NCBI GenBank assembly: GCA_044227805.1
Contig: JBGAWA010000002.1
Span: 16,654 to 80,653, forward strand
Length of the DNA stretch: 64,000 bases
Origin: Chitinophagales bacterium
GTDB taxonomy: Bacteria; Bacteroidota; Bacteroidia; Chitinophagales; UBA10324
Reading direction: 5' to 3'
In this document: piece by piece, positions 4,258-62,778 of the stretch
Numbering within the stretch: the first letter of the stretch is position 1
Layout: every line of letters begins with the position of its first letter
Notes under the pieces: model-generated
Told to the model about the DNA's origin: nothing
The model's database searches: none
What the model saw: the letters and a program-made list of their open reading frames with translations, nothing else
Program-made: the position numbers and the translations under genes

Positions 4258-4347
4258 GTACAGTAAATACACTGTCTTATGAGTGCCTTCAGATGCGCAG
4301 CTGCAATCACGGCTGATGAAGTGTTGTGTGTAATGATTAAAAATAAT

Positions 4348-4381
4348 GAACCCGGATTTTTCCATTGAAGTATCCGGGTTC
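4348..4381. repeat. Solo hairpin related to module A of the repeat family (GAACCCGGAT-N14-ATCCGGGTTC)
   Basis: Perfect 10-bp inverted repeat. The loop and left arm (cccggatttttccattgaa) match module A of the ~160-bp repeat. Lies 36 bp left of the full copy at 4417-4577. Confidence 0.7.
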
Positions 4382-4416
4382 ATGATCAGCATCGGCACGC
4401 ATTCAGTATTTCTGCG

Positions 4417-4577
4417 TTAAACCCACTTTTTGCAGTTCAAAACGGCAACGGGTTTAACCCCGACGTAGAACTGCTTAGGGTTTGTGAAACATTTTCTTTT
4501 CTTGACAAATTGAGCAAACCCTTAGCAGTTTTATGTCGCAGCGAAGCGGGATTTTTCCATTGAAAAATCCGGGTTAA
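4417..4577 (-). repeat. Structured ~160-bp intergenic repeat, full copy (sub-family I), reverse orientation
   Basis: Its reverse complement aligns almost base-for-base with 62616-62778. Followed at 4578-4599 by a partial extra copy of the gaagcgggattt segment. Sits between convergent genes. Confidence 0.9.
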
Positions 4578-4611
4578 AATGAAGCGGGATTTATGATTCA
4601 AAGATTCAAAT

Positions 4612-5418: not shown

Positions 5419-7518
5419 ATGAAATTAACCGCTTCATTACTTCTCAGTTGCTTTACCATCCTGCAGGTGTCTGCGCAATTCGCCTACATCAACCCGAAAC
5501 CTGGCTCTCAGTATAGCCATCCGCAGACGAGTATCATACTTAAAAACGGAAGTCTGCTGGACAGAACTTCTTTATCCGGCAAAAACCTGCTGGAAATCTC
5601 CGGATCATCCAGCGGAAGGCATGCATGGACAGCACGTTTATCGGACGATGATAAGACCGTGGTGATTAAACCTGCCACCGCTTTTGATTTTGGAGAAACC
5701 GTCACCGTTACAGTTCACCCTCAGTTGAGAAAAATCAGCGGAGAGAAAATGGAAGGCGCTACTTTCTCTTTTCAGATCAGGAACAAACCAACACCGGAAG
5801 ACGAGATCGCTTACGCAGAAATGAGAAAGCAGTCACTGCGGGAGGTGAGGGGATACGATCCGGCAGAAAAAAATCCGGATGATATCACCTATCCGCTGGA
5901 TTCGATGCCTGCTTATGTAATCAATGTCAATACTAATCCGGCGCCGGGCCAGATCTTTTACCGCAATAAGGAAGATCAGACTTCGGAAGTACCCAATACG
6001 AATTCATTTGCCACGATTATTGAGAACGATGGCACCATACTGTGGGCAAGGGATTTGGGACAATTTGGGGCTGACTTTAAACTGAATGCCAATGGCTACA
6101 TGACCTATTTTGCGGATACCGCGCAATGGATGGTGCTGGACTCCAACTATAATCTTATTGATTCGGTGCGGTGCAAGAATGGATATGAACTTGAGACACA
6201 GGGGCATGATGTCATGATGTATCCGGATGGCCATGTATTCCTGATGGCCTATAATCTTCAAACAATTGACATGACTGCATACGGTGGCATTCCAAATGCA
6301 AAAGTGCAGGGATTTGTGGTGCAGGAGCTTGATGCTAATCGTGACGTAGTGTTTGAATGGACAAGCTGGGATCATTTTCTTTTCACAGATGCTAATTCGC
6401 ATACCCCACTCACCAATTCACAGGTTGATTATGTACATGGAAATTCTATAGAGCGCGACTATGATGGTAACATCATCATTTCTTCCCGTAACATGGATGA
6501 GATAACAAAAATCAGCCATGAAACAGGTGATATCATCTGGCGACTGGGTGGTGAAAACAATCAATTCACTTTTGTGAATGACAATATCCCCCAGCATTTT
6601 TCCTCACAGCATGATGCCCGCCGTTTGCCGAATGGCAATATTATCCTGTTCAATAATGGAAATTACCTCTCGCCGTTGATTTCAAGTGCCAAAGAGTATA
6701 AGCTGGATGAGGTGAATAAAGTGGCAACATTGGTTTGGTTCTATGAACATCCCGATGTAAACGGATTTAAGGTTTATGGGGCGGCAACCGGCAATGCGCA
6801 ACGCCTGCCCAATGGCAACACCATCATTAACTGGGGATTGATTGCACCGAATGTTGGACTGCCCAATCATACGGAAGTAGATTCCAATAAAAATATTGTG
6901 TGGGAGATGAGATTCGAATCATCGAAACAGAAATGTTATCGCATACATAAGTACGAATGGAATCCCTGCAGCCGGATTACTGGTTATACCATGAAAGTAA
7001 AAAAGATCACGCCCAATACAGCGACGGTAAGCTGGGGCGATGCGACAGGCGCCACTTCCTACAAAGTGCAGCGTCGTGTGGCAGGAACAACGGAATGGAA
7101 ATCCAAAACCACTTCCTCCGGAAAATTAAAACTGAACAACCTATTGCCGGCTACTGCCTATGAGTGGCGGGTACTCACCAAATGCACAGGGTTACCGGAA
7201 AATACTTCCGCTTATTCAGTAATGGATACATTCACTACCCTTCCGTTAAAGAGTACTGAATTTTTTATGGCTGAACCACTTCAGTTAACTGTCTATCCTG
7301 TTCCGGCTACCGATCAGATTACTATTGCGGTGAGTAATGCTGAACCCTCTTCACTTACCATCCGCAATATGATCGGAGAAGTTGTTTACTTCCGAAAGAT
7401 CCTGGCGGCAGAGGATGGCCCCATTCAGATTGATGTGCAGGAGTGGCCAGCCGGAGTTTATATTGTTGAAATCAATAATGGTGCGCAGTCCGCTGTGCGA
7501 AAGATGGTGAAAGAGTAA
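5419..7518 (+). CDS. Arylsulfotransferase (ASST)-like beta-propeller protein with FN3-like domain and T9SS CTD
   Basis: YVHGNSIERDYDGNIIISSRN and QHDARRLPNGNIILFNNGN resemble ASST-family propeller motifs. An FN3-like segment (ATVSWGDATGATSYKVQRR) is present. C-terminal LTVYPVPATDQITIAV...GVYIVEI CTD. Start moved to the ATG at 5419 (MKLTASLLLSCFTILQVSAQ). Confidence 0.7.
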   Translation: MKLTASLLLSCFTILQVSAQFAYINPKPGSQYSHPQTSIILKNGSLLDRTSLSGKNLLEISGSSSGRHAWTARLSDDDKTVVIKPATAFDFGETVTVTVHPQLRKISGEKMEGATFSFQIRNKPTPEDEIAYAEMRKQSLREVRGYDPAEKNPDDITYPLDSMPAYVINVNTNPAPGQIFYRNKEDQTSEVPNTNSFATIIENDGTILWARDLGQFGADFKLNANGYMTYFADTAQWMVLDSNYNLIDSVRCKNGYELETQGHDVMMYPDGHVFLMAYNLQTIDMTAYGGIPNAKVQGFVVQELDANRDVVFEWTSWDHFLFTDANSHTPLTNSQVDYVHGNSIERDYDGNIIISSRNMDEITKISHETGDIIWRLGGENNQFTFVNDNIPQHFSSQHDARRLPNGNIILFNNGNYLSPLISSAKEYKLDEVNKVATLVWFYEHPDVNGFKVYGAATGNAQRLPNGNTIINWGLIAPNVGLPNHTEVDSNKNIVWEMRFESSKQKCYRIHKYEWNPCSRITGYTMKVKKITPNTATVSWGDATGATSYKVQRRVAGTTEWKSKTTSSGKLKLNNLLPATAYEWRVLTKCTGLPENTSAYSVMDTFTTLPLKSTEFFMAEPLQLTVYPVPATDQITIAVSNAEPSSLTIRNMIGEVVYFRKILAAEDGPIQIDVQEWPAGVYIVEINNGAQSAVRKMVKE

Positions 7519-10499: not shown

Positions 10500-10537
10500 T
10501 TCAACGCGGATTTTAGCATCGAAAAATCCGCGTTGAA
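10500..10537. terminator. Perfect 15-bp hairpin between convergent genes (sequence related to repeat module A)
   Basis: TTCAACGCGGATTTT-agcatcga-AAAATCCGCGTTGAA. Lies between the stops at 10451 (+) and 10558 (-). The core CGGATTTT/AAAATCCG resembles module A. Confidence 0.7.
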
Positions 10538-22078: not shown

Positions 22079-22205
22079 GAGCCAGCAAATTGCATTTGGA
22101 TTTTCCTATTAAGCTCATTGCTGTTTTTAACCCACATCCAGATATTCAAAACATTATCGAGTTTTACCCGGCATGGAGAAGCATTTACTTCTTTGCAGAT
22201 AAGAA

Positions 22206-22366
22206 TTAAACCCACATTTTGCATTTCAAAAACGCATGGGGTTTAACCCCGACGCAGCACTGCTTAGGGTTTGCGAAACATTTTCTTTTCTTGAAAAAAT
22301 GAGTAAACTCTTAGCAGTGCTAAGTCGTAGCGAAGCGGGATTTTTCTACTGAAAAATCCGGGTTAA
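22206..22366 (-). repeat. Structured ~160-bp intergenic repeat, full copy (sub-family II), reverse orientation
   Basis: Near-exact reverse complement of 45052-45211, roughly 93% identity by eye. Followed by a partial re-duplication (ttaagtcgtagc at 22380-22391). Confidence 0.9.
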
Positions 22367-24061: not shown

Positions 24062-24276
24062 GTTGAGTGGTTTTTGGATTTATTTAATTCAACTAATGTA
24101 GGATAATTTTATTTAGGATTTGCAATAGTGCCGGTTCAAAAGTACCGGCGAAAGACAAGTGGAGGATTCACCAGTGAAGCAGTTGTATGCCAGGATGAAA
24201 CCTGCTGCAGGTTATGACGCTAACATGCGGGTTGAGATAGACTCCGTGTAATCCGTCAAATGAGACAGGAATAAAA

Positions 24277-25590: not shown

Positions 25591-25748
25591 TACCCGGATT
25601 TTTCAATGGAAAAATCCCGCTTCACTACGATACAGCACTGTATAGGGGGTACTCATTTCTGTCAGAAAAGAAAATGTTTAAAAACCCAAGCAGTGCTGCT
25701 TCGGGGTTAAACACGTAGCAGTTTTGTACGGTACTGTGCGGGTTCAAA
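25591..25748 (+). repeat. Structured ~160-bp intergenic repeat, diverged full copy, forward orientation
   Basis: Module A is intact (cccggatttttcaatggaaaaatcccgcttc). The long stem and tail are recognisable but diverged (cagcactg...cagtgctg core retained). Confidence 0.8.
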
Positions 25749-38889: not shown

Positions 38890-38904
38890 GCGTGCCATGT
38901 ATGG

Positions 38905-38931
38905 ATCCGGGATTTTCCATGGAAAAATTCA
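38905..38931 (-). repeat. Solo module-A-like palindrome between convergent genes
   Basis: ccgggaTTTTCCATGGAAAAattc resembles gcgggatttttccattgaaaaatcc of the repeat. Lies between the pheS stop (38889) and the stop of the convergent gene (38968). Confidence 0.55.
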
Positions 38932-38967: not shown

Positions 38968-40380
38968 TCAGAATACTAATTTATTCAGTGCCTTTACCAT
39001 ATTTCTGCGGCTGCTGTATTTCACTTTGAATTCGTTGGTGAGTGTTTTTGCCATAGCGACGCCGGCAGGAAGCGATTGTATTTTTCGCAGGGTGCTCACG
39101 ATATAATTGTAATGTTCGCGGCCCATATGCTGCTCGGCATAACGACGGAGGGCGACACGGTAAACAGCTACCAGTTCTTCCGGAAACCGGTCTTTGAGCA
39201 GATCATAAAAATCCTCCGCGAATTCAAGCGTGGCATTTTTTTGCAGCAGGGCGAGCAGCCGCTGCCAATATTGTTCTTCCACAAAAATGGTTGCCAGTGC
39301 TCGGATACCTTTCCATCCGAAATTTTTTTCGGCTTTCAGCGTACCAATGATCTTTTCAACTTCCGGCTTCCACTTGTCTGCCGTATAGGTGGCCTTCACT
39401 TTTCGATAATATTCGATGCGGAACTGATCATAAAATAATCGCAGTCCTGATTGCCTTACCTGGCGCACGTCGTTCTCTTCTTCTGCAATTTGTAAGAGTA
39501 ATTCATCCCATTCCGAACTTGCATACAGCCGTCCTTTCTGCTGATCGCTTCGCTTGCTTTCCTTAATGAGTTCTTTGGCAGCTTCAAATTGGTGTTGCTG
39601 GATGTGTTCATCAATCAGTTGCCGGCGGAAAGTGCGTATGCGAAGATTATCCGCCAGCACTTTCTTCGCCTCCTCCGGTCTTCCCAGGCGATGGAGGATC
39701 AGCATTTTTTTTCGTAAAAAAAATTCTTCGTACCGCTCATTCATGATATCCTGGTGGCGGCTGCCCGTTGCAAGAATCAACTGATCAAGCAGTGTTACCA
39801 GGCGAAGCTGTTGTTCTTCATTCATGACGGCTGCCAGGAGTACATCAATCCAGTATTCTTCCAATCCTTTATCCCGGTAGGCGGGCCGGAGCGCTTCCTG
39901 CAAAGCCGTTTCAAAAATGAGTTCCTTCAGTTGCGGTCCGGCATCTGTATGGAGGATGGCATCCAGTATGGAAAAAGCGGTTACAATTTTCCCGTGCAAT
40001 AGTGCATCCGGATCATCAGCGCGGCCCACCAGCGGATGAACTAATCCGATCAACCCAACGGCGAGGTAAAAGGGATCGAGGTAATTTTTGATGGCCAGCT
40101 GGCCGGCTGCCTGCCCCAACAAGGCATCGAGGCGCTTTGCCACTGTTGGCGCGTAATGGGACTGCGGAGGTGGATAGCCAATGATCTGCTGCAGCAGCAG
40201 CAGGTATTTTTCTCTGCCTGTCATCTTTAACCTGTCGGCAAAGTGCAGCAGGAATTCAGTTGCCAATTCAGGGTTTTCTGCGGCATATATTTCTATGAAT
40301 TCACGTAATTCTTTATCTCTTACCCGCTTGAGTAAGGATGTCATCACAGTGGACGCAGCGGGATTTTGTGCCGTATCCAT
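38968..40380 (-). CDS. Hypothetical all-alpha protein (470 aa)
   Basis: Long uninterrupted ORF with helical-repeat-like composition. No recognisable motif. Confidence 0.7.
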   Translation of the reverse strand: MDTAQNPAASTVMTSLLKRVRDKELREFIEIYAAENPELATEFLLHFADRLKMTGREKYLLLLQQIIGYPPPQSHYAPTVAKRLDALLGQAAGQLAIKNYLDPFYLAVGLIGLVHPLVGRADDPDALLHGKIVTAFSILDAILHTDAGPQLKELIFETALQEALRPAYRDKGLEEYWIDVLLAAVMNEEQQLRLVTLLDQLILATGSRHQDIMNERYEEFFLRKKMLILHRLGRPEEAKKVLADNLRIRTFRRQLIDEHIQQHQFEAAKELIKESKRSDQQKGRLYASSEWDELLLQIAEEENDVRQVRQSGLRLFYDQFRIEYYRKVKATYTADKWKPEVEKIIGTLKAEKNFGWKGIRALATIFVEEQYWQRLLALLQKNATLEFAEDFYDLLKDRFPEELVAVYRVALRRYAEQHMGREHYNYIVSTLRKIQSLPAGVAMAKTLTNEFKVKYSSRRNMVKALNKLVF

Positions 40381-40451
40381 TTTCAGTGGGAGATGAGAGA
40401 CTTCAAAGTCATAGGCATGCCGGCAAATCTGAAGCAGTGGTTATTCATTTT

Positions 40452-40497
40452 GCGTTAAGCCCGGTTCTGCTTTGAAAGGTAAAATGCGGGATTAACC
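40452..40497 (+). repeat. Solo tail module (3' hairpin) of the repeat family
   Basis: gcgTTAAGCCCGgttctgCTTTGAAaggtAAAATGCGGGATTAAcc aligns with GTTAAACCCgttgccgCTTTGAACTGCAAAATGTGGGTTTAA. The stem bases differ but pairing is kept (TTAAGCCCG/CGGGATTAA). Confidence 0.7.
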
Positions 40498-40758
40498 TGT
40501 AAAGATAACAAGTGATCAGCAGGAAATGTCCTTCATGAAAAGAACTTTCGAATTAAAGTCATTGCAATTCTATTTATTGATTTTTTTGAAATCGTATTCG
40601 CCTTTTGGTATGTTTCGCACTATCTCTTCACTAATATTGGAGCTGACTCCATCACAGCGTTATTGGGCAGCGTTCTTCGCAAAGTGAATCGCTATCATTT
40701 CTGATGAAACAGCGGTAAATTGCTTTCCGGTTTTTCAATGGAGGCCATTGCACTGCTG

Positions 40759-42029: not shown

Positions 42030-42218
42030 CCGTTATACCGGTATTAGCACCTTTGGTCAGCGGAAGGGCATTCGGCTTCATTATTCTGCATGTACTTTTT
42101 GTGGAGATGGTGCAGACAATGGATAATCCGGAACATGAGCTTATGCCTGCTTCAGTAATGCACGCACCGCACAAGGCATAAGCAAGAGTAGAATGTCTGA
42201 ATATACACGCTGCTGTAT

Positions 42219-42243
42219 GGAACTGCAAAATGTGGGATAAAAT
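42219..42243 (+). repeat. Solo fragment of the repeat tail motif, 40 nt upstream of gcvT
   Basis: ggAACTGCAAAATGTGGGataaa matches the invariant tail core GAACTGCAAAATGTGGGTTTAAA. Confidence 0.6.
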
Positions 42244-44924: not shown

Positions 44925-45051
44925 GATTTACTCCTGCACCTGTTTTTGCTTAGCACCGAAAAAGCAGGTTCATCATCTGCGCGATATGCGAAGGATGATT
45001 TCCGCTGCATTTTTTGATAGTTGTCTTCCTTCCTTTTGCAGGATATTGTTT

Positions 45052-45211
45052 GAACCCGGATTTTTCAGTAGAAAAATCCCGCTTCGCTACGAATTAGCAC
45101 TGCTAAGGGGTTGCTCATTTTTTCAAGAAAAGAAAATGTTTCGCAAACCCTAAGCAGTGCTGTGTCGGGGTTAAACCCCATGCGTTTTTGAAATGCAAAA
45201 TGTGGGTTGAA
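45052..45211 (+). repeat. Structured ~160-bp intergenic repeat, full copy (sub-family II), forward orientation, directly upstream of nuoA
   Basis: gaacccggatttttcagtagaaaaatcccgcttcgctacgaattagcactgctaagg...caaaccctaagcagtgctgtgtcggggttaaaccccatgcgtttttgaaatgcaaaatgtgggttgaa. Ends 34 nt before the nuoA ATG. Confidence 0.9.
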
Positions 45212-49055: not shown

Positions 49056-49157
49056 TTCAACCCGTAGTTTTCTATTGAACCTGCGTTTGGCAGTTCAAAA
49101 CAGCAGCTCTACACGGTGGTGAAGCGGGATTTCTCCATTGAAAAAATCCTGATTGAA
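49056..49157 (-). repeat. Internally deleted copy of the repeat (tail plus module A, central long stem missing) inside the nuoH-nuoI spacer
   Basis: ttcaacccgtagttttc/tgaacctgcgtttggcagttcaaaa (tail, partly duplicated) joins directly to gaagcgggatttctccattgaaaaaatcctgattgaaaatg (module A). Confidence 0.75.
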
Positions 49158-52839: not shown

Positions 52840-52903
52840 GATAAGCTGAAAGAATAACCCGGCTAGTATTGAAAGCACGGTAATCCAAATTTAAAAGCTC
52901 AAA

Positions 52904-52947
52904 GTTGTAACGAAGCGGGATTTTTCAATGGAAAAATCCGGGTTAAA
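52904..52947 (-). repeat. Solo module A of the repeat, abutting a stop codon
   Basis: gttgtaacgaagcgggatttttcaatggaaaaatccgggttaaa ends 1 nt before the TAG (52948-52950) of the minus-strand gene. Confidence 0.85.
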
Positions 52948-55057: not shown

Positions 55058-55115
55058 TGCAGGAAGCATCAAGGTTTACCTTCCGCAGCGTAACCGCTAT
55101 CCTGCCACTATCAAT

Positions 55116-55157
55116 CTTAGGGCAATGGCATTTTTCAATTGAAAAATTCGGGACTAA
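55116..55157 (-). repeat. Degenerate solo module A of the repeat
   Basis: cttagggcaatggcatttttcaattgaaaaattcgggactaa aligns with cttagcag...gcgggatttttccattgaaaaatccgggttaa. Confidence 0.55.
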
Positions 55158-55203: not shown

Positions 55204-56232
55204 ATGCTTCAGCTTTCTGTAATCATTGTCAACTACAATGTGCGTTTCTTCCTGGAGCAGGCATTGCTGTCGGCCAGGAAAGCCATGCAGCAGTTATCCG
55301 CTGAAATAATTGTGGTGGATAATAATTCCGTTGACGGCACCAGCGAAATGATGCGCGAAAAGTTTCCGGAAGTAATTTACCTGTATAACAAAGAGAATGT
55401 GGGCTTCGCGAAAGCCAATAACCAGGGAATCGCCATAGCCAAAGGCAAGTATGTCTTATTGCTCAATCCGGATACAATAGTCGAAGAAGACACCTTTGAG
55501 AAGTGCCTTCGGTTTATGGAGACGCATGAGGATGCCGGGGCAGTTGGCGTGAAGATGCTGGATGGCAAAGGAAATTTTCTTCCCGAATCAAAACGTGGAT
55601 TTCCATCTCCCAGGGTAGCCTTCTACAAAGCATTCGGACTGGCACGGCTGTTTCCGACATCAAAAATTTTCGGCGGTTATCACCTCGGTTATCTTTCTGA
55701 AAATGAAACGCATGAAGTGGATGTGCTGGCAGGCGCTTTTATGTTTATCAGGAAAACGGCGCTGGACAAGGCAGGCTGGCTCGATGAGTCTTTCTTCATG
55801 TATGGCGAAGACATCGATCTTTCCTACCGTATCGTAAAAGCGGGATTTAAAAATTATTACTTCCCCGATACGCGCATCATTCACTATAAAGGAGAAAGCA
55901 GCAAGAAAGGCACGATGAATTATGTGCGCATGTTTTACCAGGCCATGATCATCTTTGCGCAAAAACATTTCAGCAGCAATGCCGGATTTTATATCCTGAT
56001 GCTGAAGGCGGCCATTTATCTGCGCGCGCTGTTATCTGTTGTCTATTCTTTCCTGCGGCGCTGGAGCTTGCCCATTGCAGATGCACTCACCCTGTACGGT
56101 GGTATGCTGCTGCTCAAGAATTACTGGCAGTACAATGTGAAGGTGGCTGAAGGACTGACATATCCCGAAGAATACATCTACTTCATTATTCCCTTCCATG
56201 ATTGGGATCCGGCTCCTGCTCCATTTTGTTAA
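55204..56232 (+). CDS. Glycosyltransferase family 2 protein (with C-terminal TM segments)
   Basis: LSVIIVNYNVRFFLEQAL, VVDNNSVDGT, LLNPDT and YGEDIDLSYR are GT2 (GT-A) signatures. Confidence 0.9.
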   Translation: MLQLSVIIVNYNVRFFLEQALLSARKAMQQLSAEIIVVDNNSVDGTSEMMREKFPEVIYLYNKENVGFAKANNQGIAIAKGKYVLLLNPDTIVEEDTFEKCLRFMETHEDAGAVGVKMLDGKGNFLPESKRGFPSPRVAFYKAFGLARLFPTSKIFGGYHLGYLSENETHEVDVLAGAFMFIRKTALDKAGWLDESFFMYGEDIDLSYRIVKAGFKNYYFPDTRIIHYKGESSKKGTMNYVRMFYQAMIIFAQKHFSSNAGFYILMLKAAIYLRALLSVVYSFLRRWSLPIADALTLYGGMLLLKNYWQYNVKVAEGLTYPEEYIYFIIPFHDWDPAPAPFC

Positions 56233-57016
56233 ATTCAAAAATTTGCGGCTCGGTGAAGCAAGGGAGAAGAAACTGGTTATCGTGGGAAACAGGGAAGAAT
56301 CCTCGCGCGTGGAAATGCTGCTCAACCAGGCTAAAGTAAAAAACGATTTTATCGGTTATGTATCCACGCAGGCGGAAACACAGCACAGCGCACATCATCT
56401 CGGCGAAGTGGAACAGCTTACTGAAATTGCCCGCATCTATAAAATTGATGAGGTGATCTTTTGCTCCAAAGACATTGCTTCGCAAAAAATTATTGAATGG
56501 ATGACCCAACTCGGGACAGACCTGGAGTACAAAATTGTTCCGGAAGATTCACTCAGCATCATTGGCAGCAATTCAAAAGATGCGCCCGGTGAATTATATA
56601 CCATTGAAATTAAACTGGCCATTGCAACACCGTTTAACAAGAGAAGCAAGCGCCTGTTTGACCTGGCGGCGGCATTTTTCCTGCTACTCACGTTGCCGTT
56701 GAATATTTTTATAATCAAAAGTCCGGCGGGATTGATAGCCAATATTTTCAAAGTATTTGCCGGAAGAAAAAGCTGGGTTGGCTATGCTGGTGGCATACAA
56801 CAGCAATATCAGCTTCCACCCTTGCGGGAAGGCGTGCTCACCCCTCTTGATGAACTGAAAAATATGCAACTGGATGATGCCGCCGTTTCCCGTATCAACC
56901 TGCTCTATGCAAAAGATTACACGGCATCGCATGACGCAGAATTGTGGTTGAAATGCTTCCGGCTGCTGGGATCGGTTTCTGTACCACCATCATCAGCTCC
57001 GCGTGCCACCGGTTAA
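56198..57016 (+). CDS. WbaP/sugar-transferase-like protein lacking an obvious catalytic core (possibly the 3' part of a fused or frameshifted gene)
   Basis: Rossmann-like KKLVIVGNREES segment, then KRLFDLAAAFFLLLTLPL (start of a bacterial sugar-transferase domain) and a ...SWVGY.../...LLYAKDYTASHDAELWLK tail. The central catalytic stretch seems absent. Overlaps the GT2 ORF by 35 nt in another frame. Confidence 0.6.
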   Translation: MIGIRLLLHFVKFKNLRLGEAREKKLVIVGNREESSRVEMLLNQAKVKNDFIGYVSTQAETQHSAHHLGEVEQLTEIARIYKIDEVIFCSKDIASQKIIEWMTQLGTDLEYKIVPEDSLSIIGSNSKDAPGELYTIEIKLAIATPFNKRSKRLFDLAAAFFLLLTLPLNIFIIKSPAGLIANIFKVFAGRKSWVGYAGGIQQQYQLPPLREGVLTPLDELKNMQLDDAAVSRINLLYAKDYTASHDAELWLKCFRLLGSVSVPPSSAPRATG

Positions 57017-57052
57017 CCCTTGTTTACCATTGGTTGCAGCCCACCGGGCTTT

Positions 57053-57172
57053 GACATAGAACCTATGTAGGGTTGTTCATTTTTTTCATCACGAAAATGT
57101 TACACAAGCCCTAAGCAGCTTAAGCCAGTGGTATGCCCGTTGCTGTTATGAACCACAAAATGCGGGTTTATG
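57053..57172 (+). repeat. Diverged copy of the repeat lacking module A (long stem plus tail), 30 nt upstream of the decarboxylase ATG
   Basis: gacatagaacctatgtagggttgttcatttttttcatcacgaaaatgttacacaagccctaagcagcttaagccagtggtatgcccgttgctgttatgaaccacaaaatgcgggtttatgaa is collinear with 62653-62778. Confidence 0.75.
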
Positions 57173-62615: not shown

Positions 62616-62778
62616 TTAACCCGGATTTTTCAATGGAAAAATCCCGCTTCGCTGCGACTTAGAACTGCTAAGGGTTTGCTCATCTTTTTCAAGATAAGAA
62701 AATGTTTCACAAACCCTAAGCAGTTCTACGTCGGGGTTAAACCCGTTGCCGCTTTGAACTGCAAAATGTGGGTTTAAA
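62616..62778 (+). repeat. Structured ~160-bp intergenic repeat, full copy (sub-family I), forward orientation (reference copy)
   Basis: ttaacccggatttttcaatggaaaaatcccgcttcgctgcgacttagaactgctaagggtttgctcatctttttcaagataagaaaatgtttcacaaaccctaagcagttctacgtcggggttaaacccgttgccgctttgaactgcaaaatgtgggtttaaa. Preceded at 62603-62615 by a partial duplicate (ggaatttttcaat). Confidence 0.9.

Follow-up and report, generated by a model that had tools for sequence, protein, structure and literature searches.

Background

Miniature transposable elements (MITEs) are defined as repeats of about 50-1000 bp that lack a transposase gene, end in terminal inverted repeats, are flanked by a target-site duplication that becomes visible when filled and empty sites are compared, and occur as multiple dispersed, mostly intergenic copies, the transposase being provided by a related autonomous insertion sequence with the same ends (PMC4596501, PMC10969869). 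Amongst the bacterial representatives, Nezha of cyanobacteria and Correia of Neisseria measure about 100-170 bp, carry inverted repeats and are flanked by a target duplication (PMC3184786, PMC10969869). Lineage-level selection on hairpins has been proposed for REPINs (PMC3116915) and reported for bcr1 of Bacillus (PMC3184786). Amongst insertion sequences, the IS1031 group prefers 5'-TNA-3' targets and generates exclusively a 3-bp direct repeat (PMC12016507).

In this study, we describe a repeat of about 154 nt from a 64-kb stretch of DNA of an uncultured Chitinophagaceae bacterium, the whole of which is referred to here as the window. The identity of the repeat as a non-coding MITE is secure, because its size, its inverted repeats, its target duplication, the empty sites and the absence of coding capacity all agree with the definition of such elements. 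The explanation that best accounts for the observations jointly, and to which we assign a probability of about 0.85, is that this MITE has recently been jumping in its host, its hairpins being kept intact in the lineages that spread and decaying once a copy has been inserted. The element is of an ordinary kind, apart from a modestly interesting twist, and no new kind of system is revealed.

Copies of the element and their ends

Copies were located by sequence-profile (nhmmer) and covariance-model searches of the whole window, which yielded six full copies together with one short form and no fewer than five fragments (Table 1), corresponding to about one full copy per 9-10 kb. Two further full copies are found within 10 kb past the right edge of the window, on a scaffold from another sample (L038, positions 689-852 and 5650-5813). 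A covariance-model search performed without filters added no copies that combined kept structure with diverged sequence. The sample of full loci therefore numbers eight, six young and two old, and the young set was also read as ten alleles; the six young loci are 85-96 % identical. A preliminary description of this DNA had listed the copies without the sixth one (57016-57167) and without any of the fragments, and had placed the present locus at 45052-45211, whereas the target duplication sets the exact element at 45054-45207.

Table 1. Coordinates of the element copies in the window and of the parts of copy 45054-45207
Feature	Position	Strand	Basis or remark
MITE copy, sub-family II, 154 nt	45054..45207	+	boundaries from TGA/TGA flanks and empty sites in relatives; nhmmer 188 bits, covariance model 190 bits
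MITE copy, sub-family II	22210..22363	-	TTA/TTA flanks (element orientation); profile and covariance models
MITE copy, sub-family I	62619..62773	+	TTA/TTA flanks; profile and covariance models
MITE copy, sub-family I	4421..4574	-	TTA/TTA flanks; presence depends on strain
Older diverged MITE copy	25592..25743	+	flanks unmatched, TAT/TCA; stem partly decayed
Oldest full-length MITE copy	57016..57167	+	TTA/TTA flanks; nhmmer 54 bits, covariance model 120 bits; long stem lost
Short form, 75 nt, internal deletion	49079..49153	-	TCA/TCA flanks (element orientation); the two ends of the model joined directly
Truncated copy, left end only	52891..52947	-	immediately after nuoL, at a gene-order break relative to related taxa
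Fragment, right half	40423..40496	+	profile and covariance models
Fragment, right end only	42202..42242	+	profile and covariance models
Fragment, right part	24177..24235	+	model positions 106-164
Fragment	22124..22194		profile and covariance searches
Target-site duplication, left copy, TGA	45051..45053	.	single TGA in element-free relatives
Target-site duplication, right copy, TGA	45208..45210	.	single TGA in element-free relatives
Left terminal inverted repeat ACCCGGATTTTTCA	45054..45067	+	11/14 match to right end; motif over-representation
Right terminal inverted repeat TGCAAAATGTGGGT	45194..45207	+	motif count and end sequence
Left sub-terminal hairpin GGATTTTTC-AGTA-GAAAAATCC (helix 2)	45058..45079	+	nine pairs, invariant in ten young alleles
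Long central stem, 5' arm	45094..45110	+	predicted folds; mismatch A at 45105
Long central stem, 3' arm	45148..45162	+	predicted folds; mismatch A at 45152
Small hairpin GGGGTTAAACCCC (helix 6)	45167..45179	+	4-bp GGGG/CCCC; invariant
Right sub-terminal hairpin TGCGTTT-TTG-AAATGCA (helix 7)	45181..45197	+	overlaps right inverted repeat; predicted fold

The element begins with ACCCGGATTTT and ends with AAAATGTGGGT, and its full copies are 152-155 nt long. The terminal inverted repeats are imperfect: when the right end is reverse-complemented (ACCCACATTTTGCA), the left end ACCCGGATTTTTCA agrees with it at 11 of 14 positions. In the window, 20 occurrences of the end motif AACCCRSATTTT were counted where 2.4 would be expected, an 8-fold over-representation. 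Six-frame translation of the element gave only short open stretches, with stops in most frames, and a protein database search with all six frames of both sub-families returned no element-derived protein. No Rfam family matched anywhere in the window at the gathering threshold, and at the locus only chance-level hits appeared up to E = 10. Likewise, scans of JGI metagenomes with 24- and 25-mers gave no match, nor did a scan of viral contigs or a distant blastn search against plasmids, and an 18-mer scan of genome contigs returned 22 matches in unrelated taxa, against the ~17 expected by chance.

The window is ordinary chromosome with a GC content of 0.43-0.48, and the copies, at 0.41-0.44, are slightly AT-richer. 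The copies are dispersed, and all full ones are sited between the main gene ORFs, the oldest (57016-57167) overlapping the annotated ends of both of its neighbours. A nested insertion was considered as the source of the central stem and rejected, as an internal deletion between the short repeats GCTGC and GTTGC accounts better for the short form at 49079-49153.

Some further observations concern the surroundings and alleles of individual copies. On the minus strand at 4578-4600, the polymorphic copy 4421-4574 is bordered on its left by AAATCCCGCTTCA, a sequence found unchanged inside the element; this copy therefore landed next to an older fragment. Palindromes of 30-38 nt also occur on their own at 4346-4383, 10503-10534, 38901-38931 and 55112-55154; they conform to CCGGATTTTTC-NNNN-GAAAAATCCGG and are similar to the left hairpin of the element. 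Most of them sit just past gene 3' ends, and they could be terminators, remnants of the element or the source of its end. For the old copy 25592-25743, the alleles L051 to L060 fall into four haplotypes that represent all combinations of two left-end and two right-end variants, pointing either to recombination between strains within 150 nt or to chimeric assemblies.

Target duplication and recent mobility

Insertion of the element duplicates 3 bp of the form TNA. Nine elements have both ends intact, and eight of these, when read in element orientation, are bordered by the same trinucleotide on either side: TTA/TTA in six (62619, 4421, 22210, 57016, L038a and L038b), TGA/TGA in one (45054) and TCA/TCA in one (the short form 49079-49153). 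The sole element with unmatched flanks is the old copy 25592. The wider target is apparently palindromic, T-TNA-A, which fits a staggered cut.

Empty sites were found for two copies. Six independent assemblies of the same species (L043, L044, L045, L047, L048 and L050) lack copy 4421-4574 and have one TTA at its site, which there reads …CGCTTCATT-TTA-ACGCAG…, while the filled allele of the window and of L049 reads …CGCTTCATT-TTA-(element)-TTA-ACGCAG…. At the site of copy 45054-45207, the relatives L061 and L063 carry GATATTGAA-TGA-ACACACTATATTCG with the element absent, and the window carries GATATTGTT-TGA-(element)-TGA-ACACACTATATTCG. A further relative, L036, is also without the element at this site, and its flanks match exactly. 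The NuoD proteins of L061 and L063 are 92-93 % identical to that of the window. About 101 kb of sequence from four related taxa contained no copy, and the element is confined to this species lineage among the sampled taxa. Short-read contigs repeatedly break inside the young copies, at the starts of L026 and L027 and at the ends of L039 to L042 and L049, as assemblies do at high-copy repeats.

These flanks and ends bear on the kind of mobile unit involved. A HUH tyrosine transposase could move the element as single-stranded DNA, in the manner of REPINs or IS200/IS605, in which case hairpins and mismatches would serve as signals and TTA as a fixed target. Such a mechanism would be in keeping with the sub-terminal hairpins at both ends, the preferred short target and compensatory changes like those of REPINs (PMC3116915), and an empty site with one TTA would also be expected under it. 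However, the flank varies between TTA, TGA and TCA and yet matches on both sides, which is predicted by duplication and not by a fixed end. The ends are moreover inverted repeats of each other, the palindromic-looking target is that of a staggered double-strand cut, and the element carries neither a GTAG nor a CGTC head. We consider movement by a HUH enzyme extremely unlikely.

Several known classes were also compared and set aside. Membership of the REP/REPIN class disagrees with the presence of a target duplication and the absence of a GTAG/CGTC head, and derivation from IS200/IS605 as a palindromic element disagrees with the inverted repeats and with flanks that vary but match on both sides. 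An IS630/mariner type with TA duplication does not apply, as flanks of TGA and TCA are incompatible with a strict TA target, and a piggyBac-like TTAA target is at odds with a right flank of TTTA. An integron attC-like site was rejected, the copies being scattered among housekeeping genes with no array.

As a MITE, the element would be moved by a DDE transposase supplied in trans. Judged from the target only, the most likely driver is an IS5-family transposase of the IS1031 type: members of that group duplicate exclusively 3 bp at TNA targets, and here such a duplication is found with TTA six times and with TGA and TCA once each. One inverted repeat of the IS1031 group was compared, GAACCTGTCTAGTATCT (PMC12016507), and shows no resemblance to the element ends. 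No transposase or full-length insertion sequence with these ends was detected in the window or in the fetched loci.

Paired changes in the hairpins and decay after insertion

A strong fold is predicted for copy 45054-45207, with z = -7.15 for RNA of the plus strand, -6.12 for the minus strand and -6.49 for DNA, and none of 200 shuffled sequences was as stable. It includes a long central stem (helix 4), predicted to be capped by an apical hairpin; amongst the 22 pairs of this helix, three have changed on both sides.

On alignment of the copies, the repeat and its two sub-families were recovered as the preliminary description had drawn them. Sub-family I (copies listed there at 4417 and 62616) has the hairpin loop AATG and the tail GTTGCCG(C/T)TTTGAACTGCAAAA, and sub-family II (22206 and 45052) has the loop AGTA and the tail CATGCGTTTTTGAAATGCAAAA. 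The two sub-families are two source lineages. The exchange of an A-T for a C-G pair in the long stem, on which the earlier argument for compensation was built, is real (A4 columns 45/107, AU in 5 sequences and CG in 5). The pairing of TAGAACTG with CAGTTCTA given for it is however not clean in copy 4421-4574, where a transition in one arm has turned the pair into G·T on one strand, or A·C when the opposite strand is read.

This exchange had been presented with the caveat that it might be a single covariation event. The caveat can be lifted, as four pairs have changed on both sides among the six young loci (A4 columns 45/107, 46/106, 50/102 and 133/141), two of them also with G·U intermediates. 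Columns 46/106 pass from AU through GU to GC, being A-T in most copies, G·T in the allele of copy 62619 in L037, L039 and L040, and G-C in L038a, as confirmed by L039. Columns 50/102 are C-G everywhere except in L038b, where they are G-C with no wobble intermediate; this CG→GC double change is seen on a single scaffold, L038. In the right-end hairpin (helix 7), sub-family I has G-C at columns 133/141 where sub-family II has T-A, and L038b has G·T.

In the ten young alleles, the true register contains these four doubly changed pairs and six shifted registers contain none. Shuffled alignments reached four such pairs in 6 of 500 cases and the observed covariation score in 0 of 500. When the old copies are added to the alignment, the contrast is weaker and shifted registers reach 4-5 pairs. 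Some of the alleles come from short-read metagenome assemblies of a repeat, in which chimerism is possible. As judged from the aligned sequences, the view that pairing has been actively preserved is supported.

The fate of copies after insertion is different. Where alleles of one locus differ, so that a stem change has demonstrably arisen after insertion, compensation is seen in no case. In copy 22210-22363, the window allele has two uncompensated G→A changes that are absent from L051 and L052, and the L052 allele has one pair-breaking G→T, the L051 allele being intact. Six further pairs of the long stem show one uncompensated mismatch each, private to one locus or allele. Young copies have fold z-scores between -4.3 and -8; of the old copies, 25592 has kept about half of the stem (z = -3.8) and 57016 has a fold unlike that of the family (z = -2.8). 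Among the transition-derived non-Watson-Crick pairs, 5 events give wobbles on the plus strand of the element and 4 give wobbles on its minus strand. Relative to their neighbouring genes, two of the eight copies are forward, three are reversed and three lie between convergent genes. With wobbles on both strands and mixed orientations, neither strand stands out as a favoured RNA.

The A/A mismatch in the long stem had been described as present in every copy, with both arms reading CTAAG in the forward direction. It is indeed found in all six young loci and ten alleles (at 45105/45152 in copy 45054-45207), but both old copies are without it. The arms of 25592-25743 read TATAG and CCAAG and the left arm of 57016-57167 reads TGTAG; in the former, the equivalent position is a T-A pair that adjoins a different internal loop. 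Nor does the forward-direction reading apply throughout, as the minus-strand copies 4421-4574 and 22210-22363 read CTTAG on the plus strand of the window, with a T/T mismatch. As far as such a small sample allows, conservation of the mismatch beyond the young copies is refuted. Common descent is sufficient to explain the mismatch, because its carriers are 85-96 % identical. We conclude with moderate confidence that it was inherited from the founder of the young lineage, and see no evidence of selection on the mismatch.

The matched changes could also be a by-product of mutation, in which template switching, or repair of an extruded hairpin templated by the opposite arm, copies a change across in one step and selection is unneeded. 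Template switching is a documented mechanism by which perfect stems can arise or be restored (PMC8794818). A one-step origin is easy for the CG→GC change in L038b, which has no wobble intermediate, and the lack of a strand bias among the wobbles (5 versus 4 events) is in line with it. In the apical loop of copy 62619-62773, the window (62680-62705) has CTCATCTTTTTCAAGATAAG against CTCAATTTGTCAAGAAAAG in other strains; this cluster of changes, seen in comparison with L037 and L039, creates a new 8-bp hairpin and looks like a typical template-switch footprint. A process of this kind would nevertheless have left the A/A mismatch unrepaired in 10 of 10 young alleles and compensated none of the demonstrable post-insertion stem changes. 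The old copies are decayed and not homogenised, and columns 46/106 changed stepwise via G·T. We regard a purely mutational origin as possible but, on this evidence, rather unlikely.

The preliminary description took the conserved pairing to indicate selection on a folded form and on its recognition. The part that holds is that pairing has been kept by matched changes; the part that does not is each copy being a selected RNA or recognition site, given a mobile MITE, mismatches acquired after insertion and decayed old copies. A structured RNA or regulatory site serving the host, such as a terminator, an mRNA stabiliser or a small RNA, with fold and A/A asymmetry selected at each locus, would suit the strong predicted fold, the location of three of the eight copies between convergent gene ends and the similar small palindromes just past gene 3' ends, and MITE transcripts can form stable stem-loops and regulate (PMC10969869). 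It is difficult to reconcile, however, with the mixed orientations relative to genes (two forward, three reversed, three convergent), with a copy that is missing from most strains, with related taxa that are element-free at the same sites, and with post-insertion changes that break pairs and old copies that have lost the stem. Rfam also provides no match at the gathering threshold. A host function of this kind is thus very unlikely.

The signal, if it is one of selection, is best fitted by selection on the element lineage that is still copying itself, because matched changes are found in spreading copies and plain decay in settled ones. The folded form, whether single-stranded or cruciform DNA or RNA in either orientation, would then matter for the element's own propagation and not for the host at each site, which we infer with moderate confidence. 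Lineages that spread only while their fold is intact would explain both the matched changes and the decay. A point against such a benefit is that DDE transposases are not known to require internal hairpins. A doubtful proposal, which we offer tentatively, is that transposition requires the internal hairpins as cis signals, in particular the long central stem and its A/A mismatch. If true, an element with classic inverted-repeat ends and a 3-bp duplication would be recognised or processed in a folded form, single-stranded or cruciform.

Host and genomic context

The genes of the window include gcvT, crcB, the nuo operon, sucA, serS, pheS, SusC/SusD-like genes and many encoding proteins with a type IX secretion sorting domain. 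Its NuoD has its best named relatives in metagenome-assembled genomes of Chitinophagaceae. The same species is present in the metagenome-assembled genome GCA_964600605.1, in the 'MUNK22' assemblies of ENA and in many Logan runs, and its proteins occur only in NCBI, ENA and Logan sources.

Fragments of the repeat are found at three of the breakpoints where gene order or strain content varies, which suggests that the repeat takes part in rearrangements. In relatives, the sucA-rhodanese pair adjoins gcvT-comB-crcB-nuoA…nuoN. In the window, the fragment 42202-42242 and unrelated genes precede gcvT, and at the other end the truncated copy 52891-52947 follows nuoL, nuoM and nuoN being missing. Homology to strain L023 starts at 40503, a few bases past the fragment 40423-40496.

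The comparison with L023 also shows a strain-variable island. Upstream of the 3-hydroxyacyl-CoA dehydrogenase gene, L023 (1-2357) carries Vsr and helix-turn-helix genes where the window (38968-40502) instead encodes a 470-aa protein without a Pfam match. At the junction 56193/56194 (within window 55204-57016), 188 bp of L023 (18049-18236) are absent from inside a glycosyltransferase gene, which is an intact ORF of 666 aa in L023 and two ORFs in the window.

This study adds a well-bounded, recently active MITE family for a poorly studied, uncultured Chitinophagaceae of wastewater type, and the family accounts for the breaks that occur every few kilobases in short-read assemblies of this organism. 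It also offers a clean, small example in which paired changes in hairpins set selection on an element's own copying against a mutational mechanism.

Comparison with known systems

With bacterial MITEs such as Nezha and Correia, the element shares, beyond the features named at the outset, a position at intergenic AT-rich sites, a very stable predicted fold and filled and empty orthologous sites (PMC3184786, PMC10969869). It differs from other MITEs in showing no sequence similarity to anything searched in Rfam, plasmids, viral contigs or JGI metagenomes, in its uncultured Chitinophagaceae host, in its 3-bp TNA duplication with no known parent insertion sequence, and in folding into several separate hairpins instead of one long pairing of both ends. 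The MITEs of Porphyromonas gingivalis (BrickBuilt, MITE239 and others) are likewise non-coding elements of Bacteroidota, with IS5-family-like ends (PMC4596501). However, they end in GAGACCTTTGCA, contain internal tandem repeats, number 10-20 copies per genome, have variable duplications and bear no sequence relation to the present element.

In its target the element resembles the IS1031 group, whose TNA preference and exclusive 3-bp direct repeat (PMC12016507) are paralleled here by TTA, TGA and TCA; the likeness is one of working only, the repeat GAACCTGTCTAGTATCT of the one member compared being unlike ACCCGGATTTTTCA. REPINs are also high-copy extragenic hairpin repeats in which compensatory changes are common and have been read as selection on the replicating unit (PMC3116915). 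They are without target duplication and without terminal inverted repeats of this type, whereas the element has both.

A further parallel, in the summary given in PMC3184786, is bcr1 of the Bacillus cereus group. As summarised there, bcr1 differs in its 5-bp direct repeat, against 3 bp here, in its known transcription and in belonging to a different host phylum. According to the same summary, it is nevertheless a MITE-like repeat of about 155 bp with short direct-repeat flanks and an uneven distribution across strains, in which a cruciform-like structure is kept up by base-pair compensatory changes and has been lost from some copies, features that find their counterpart in the element described here.
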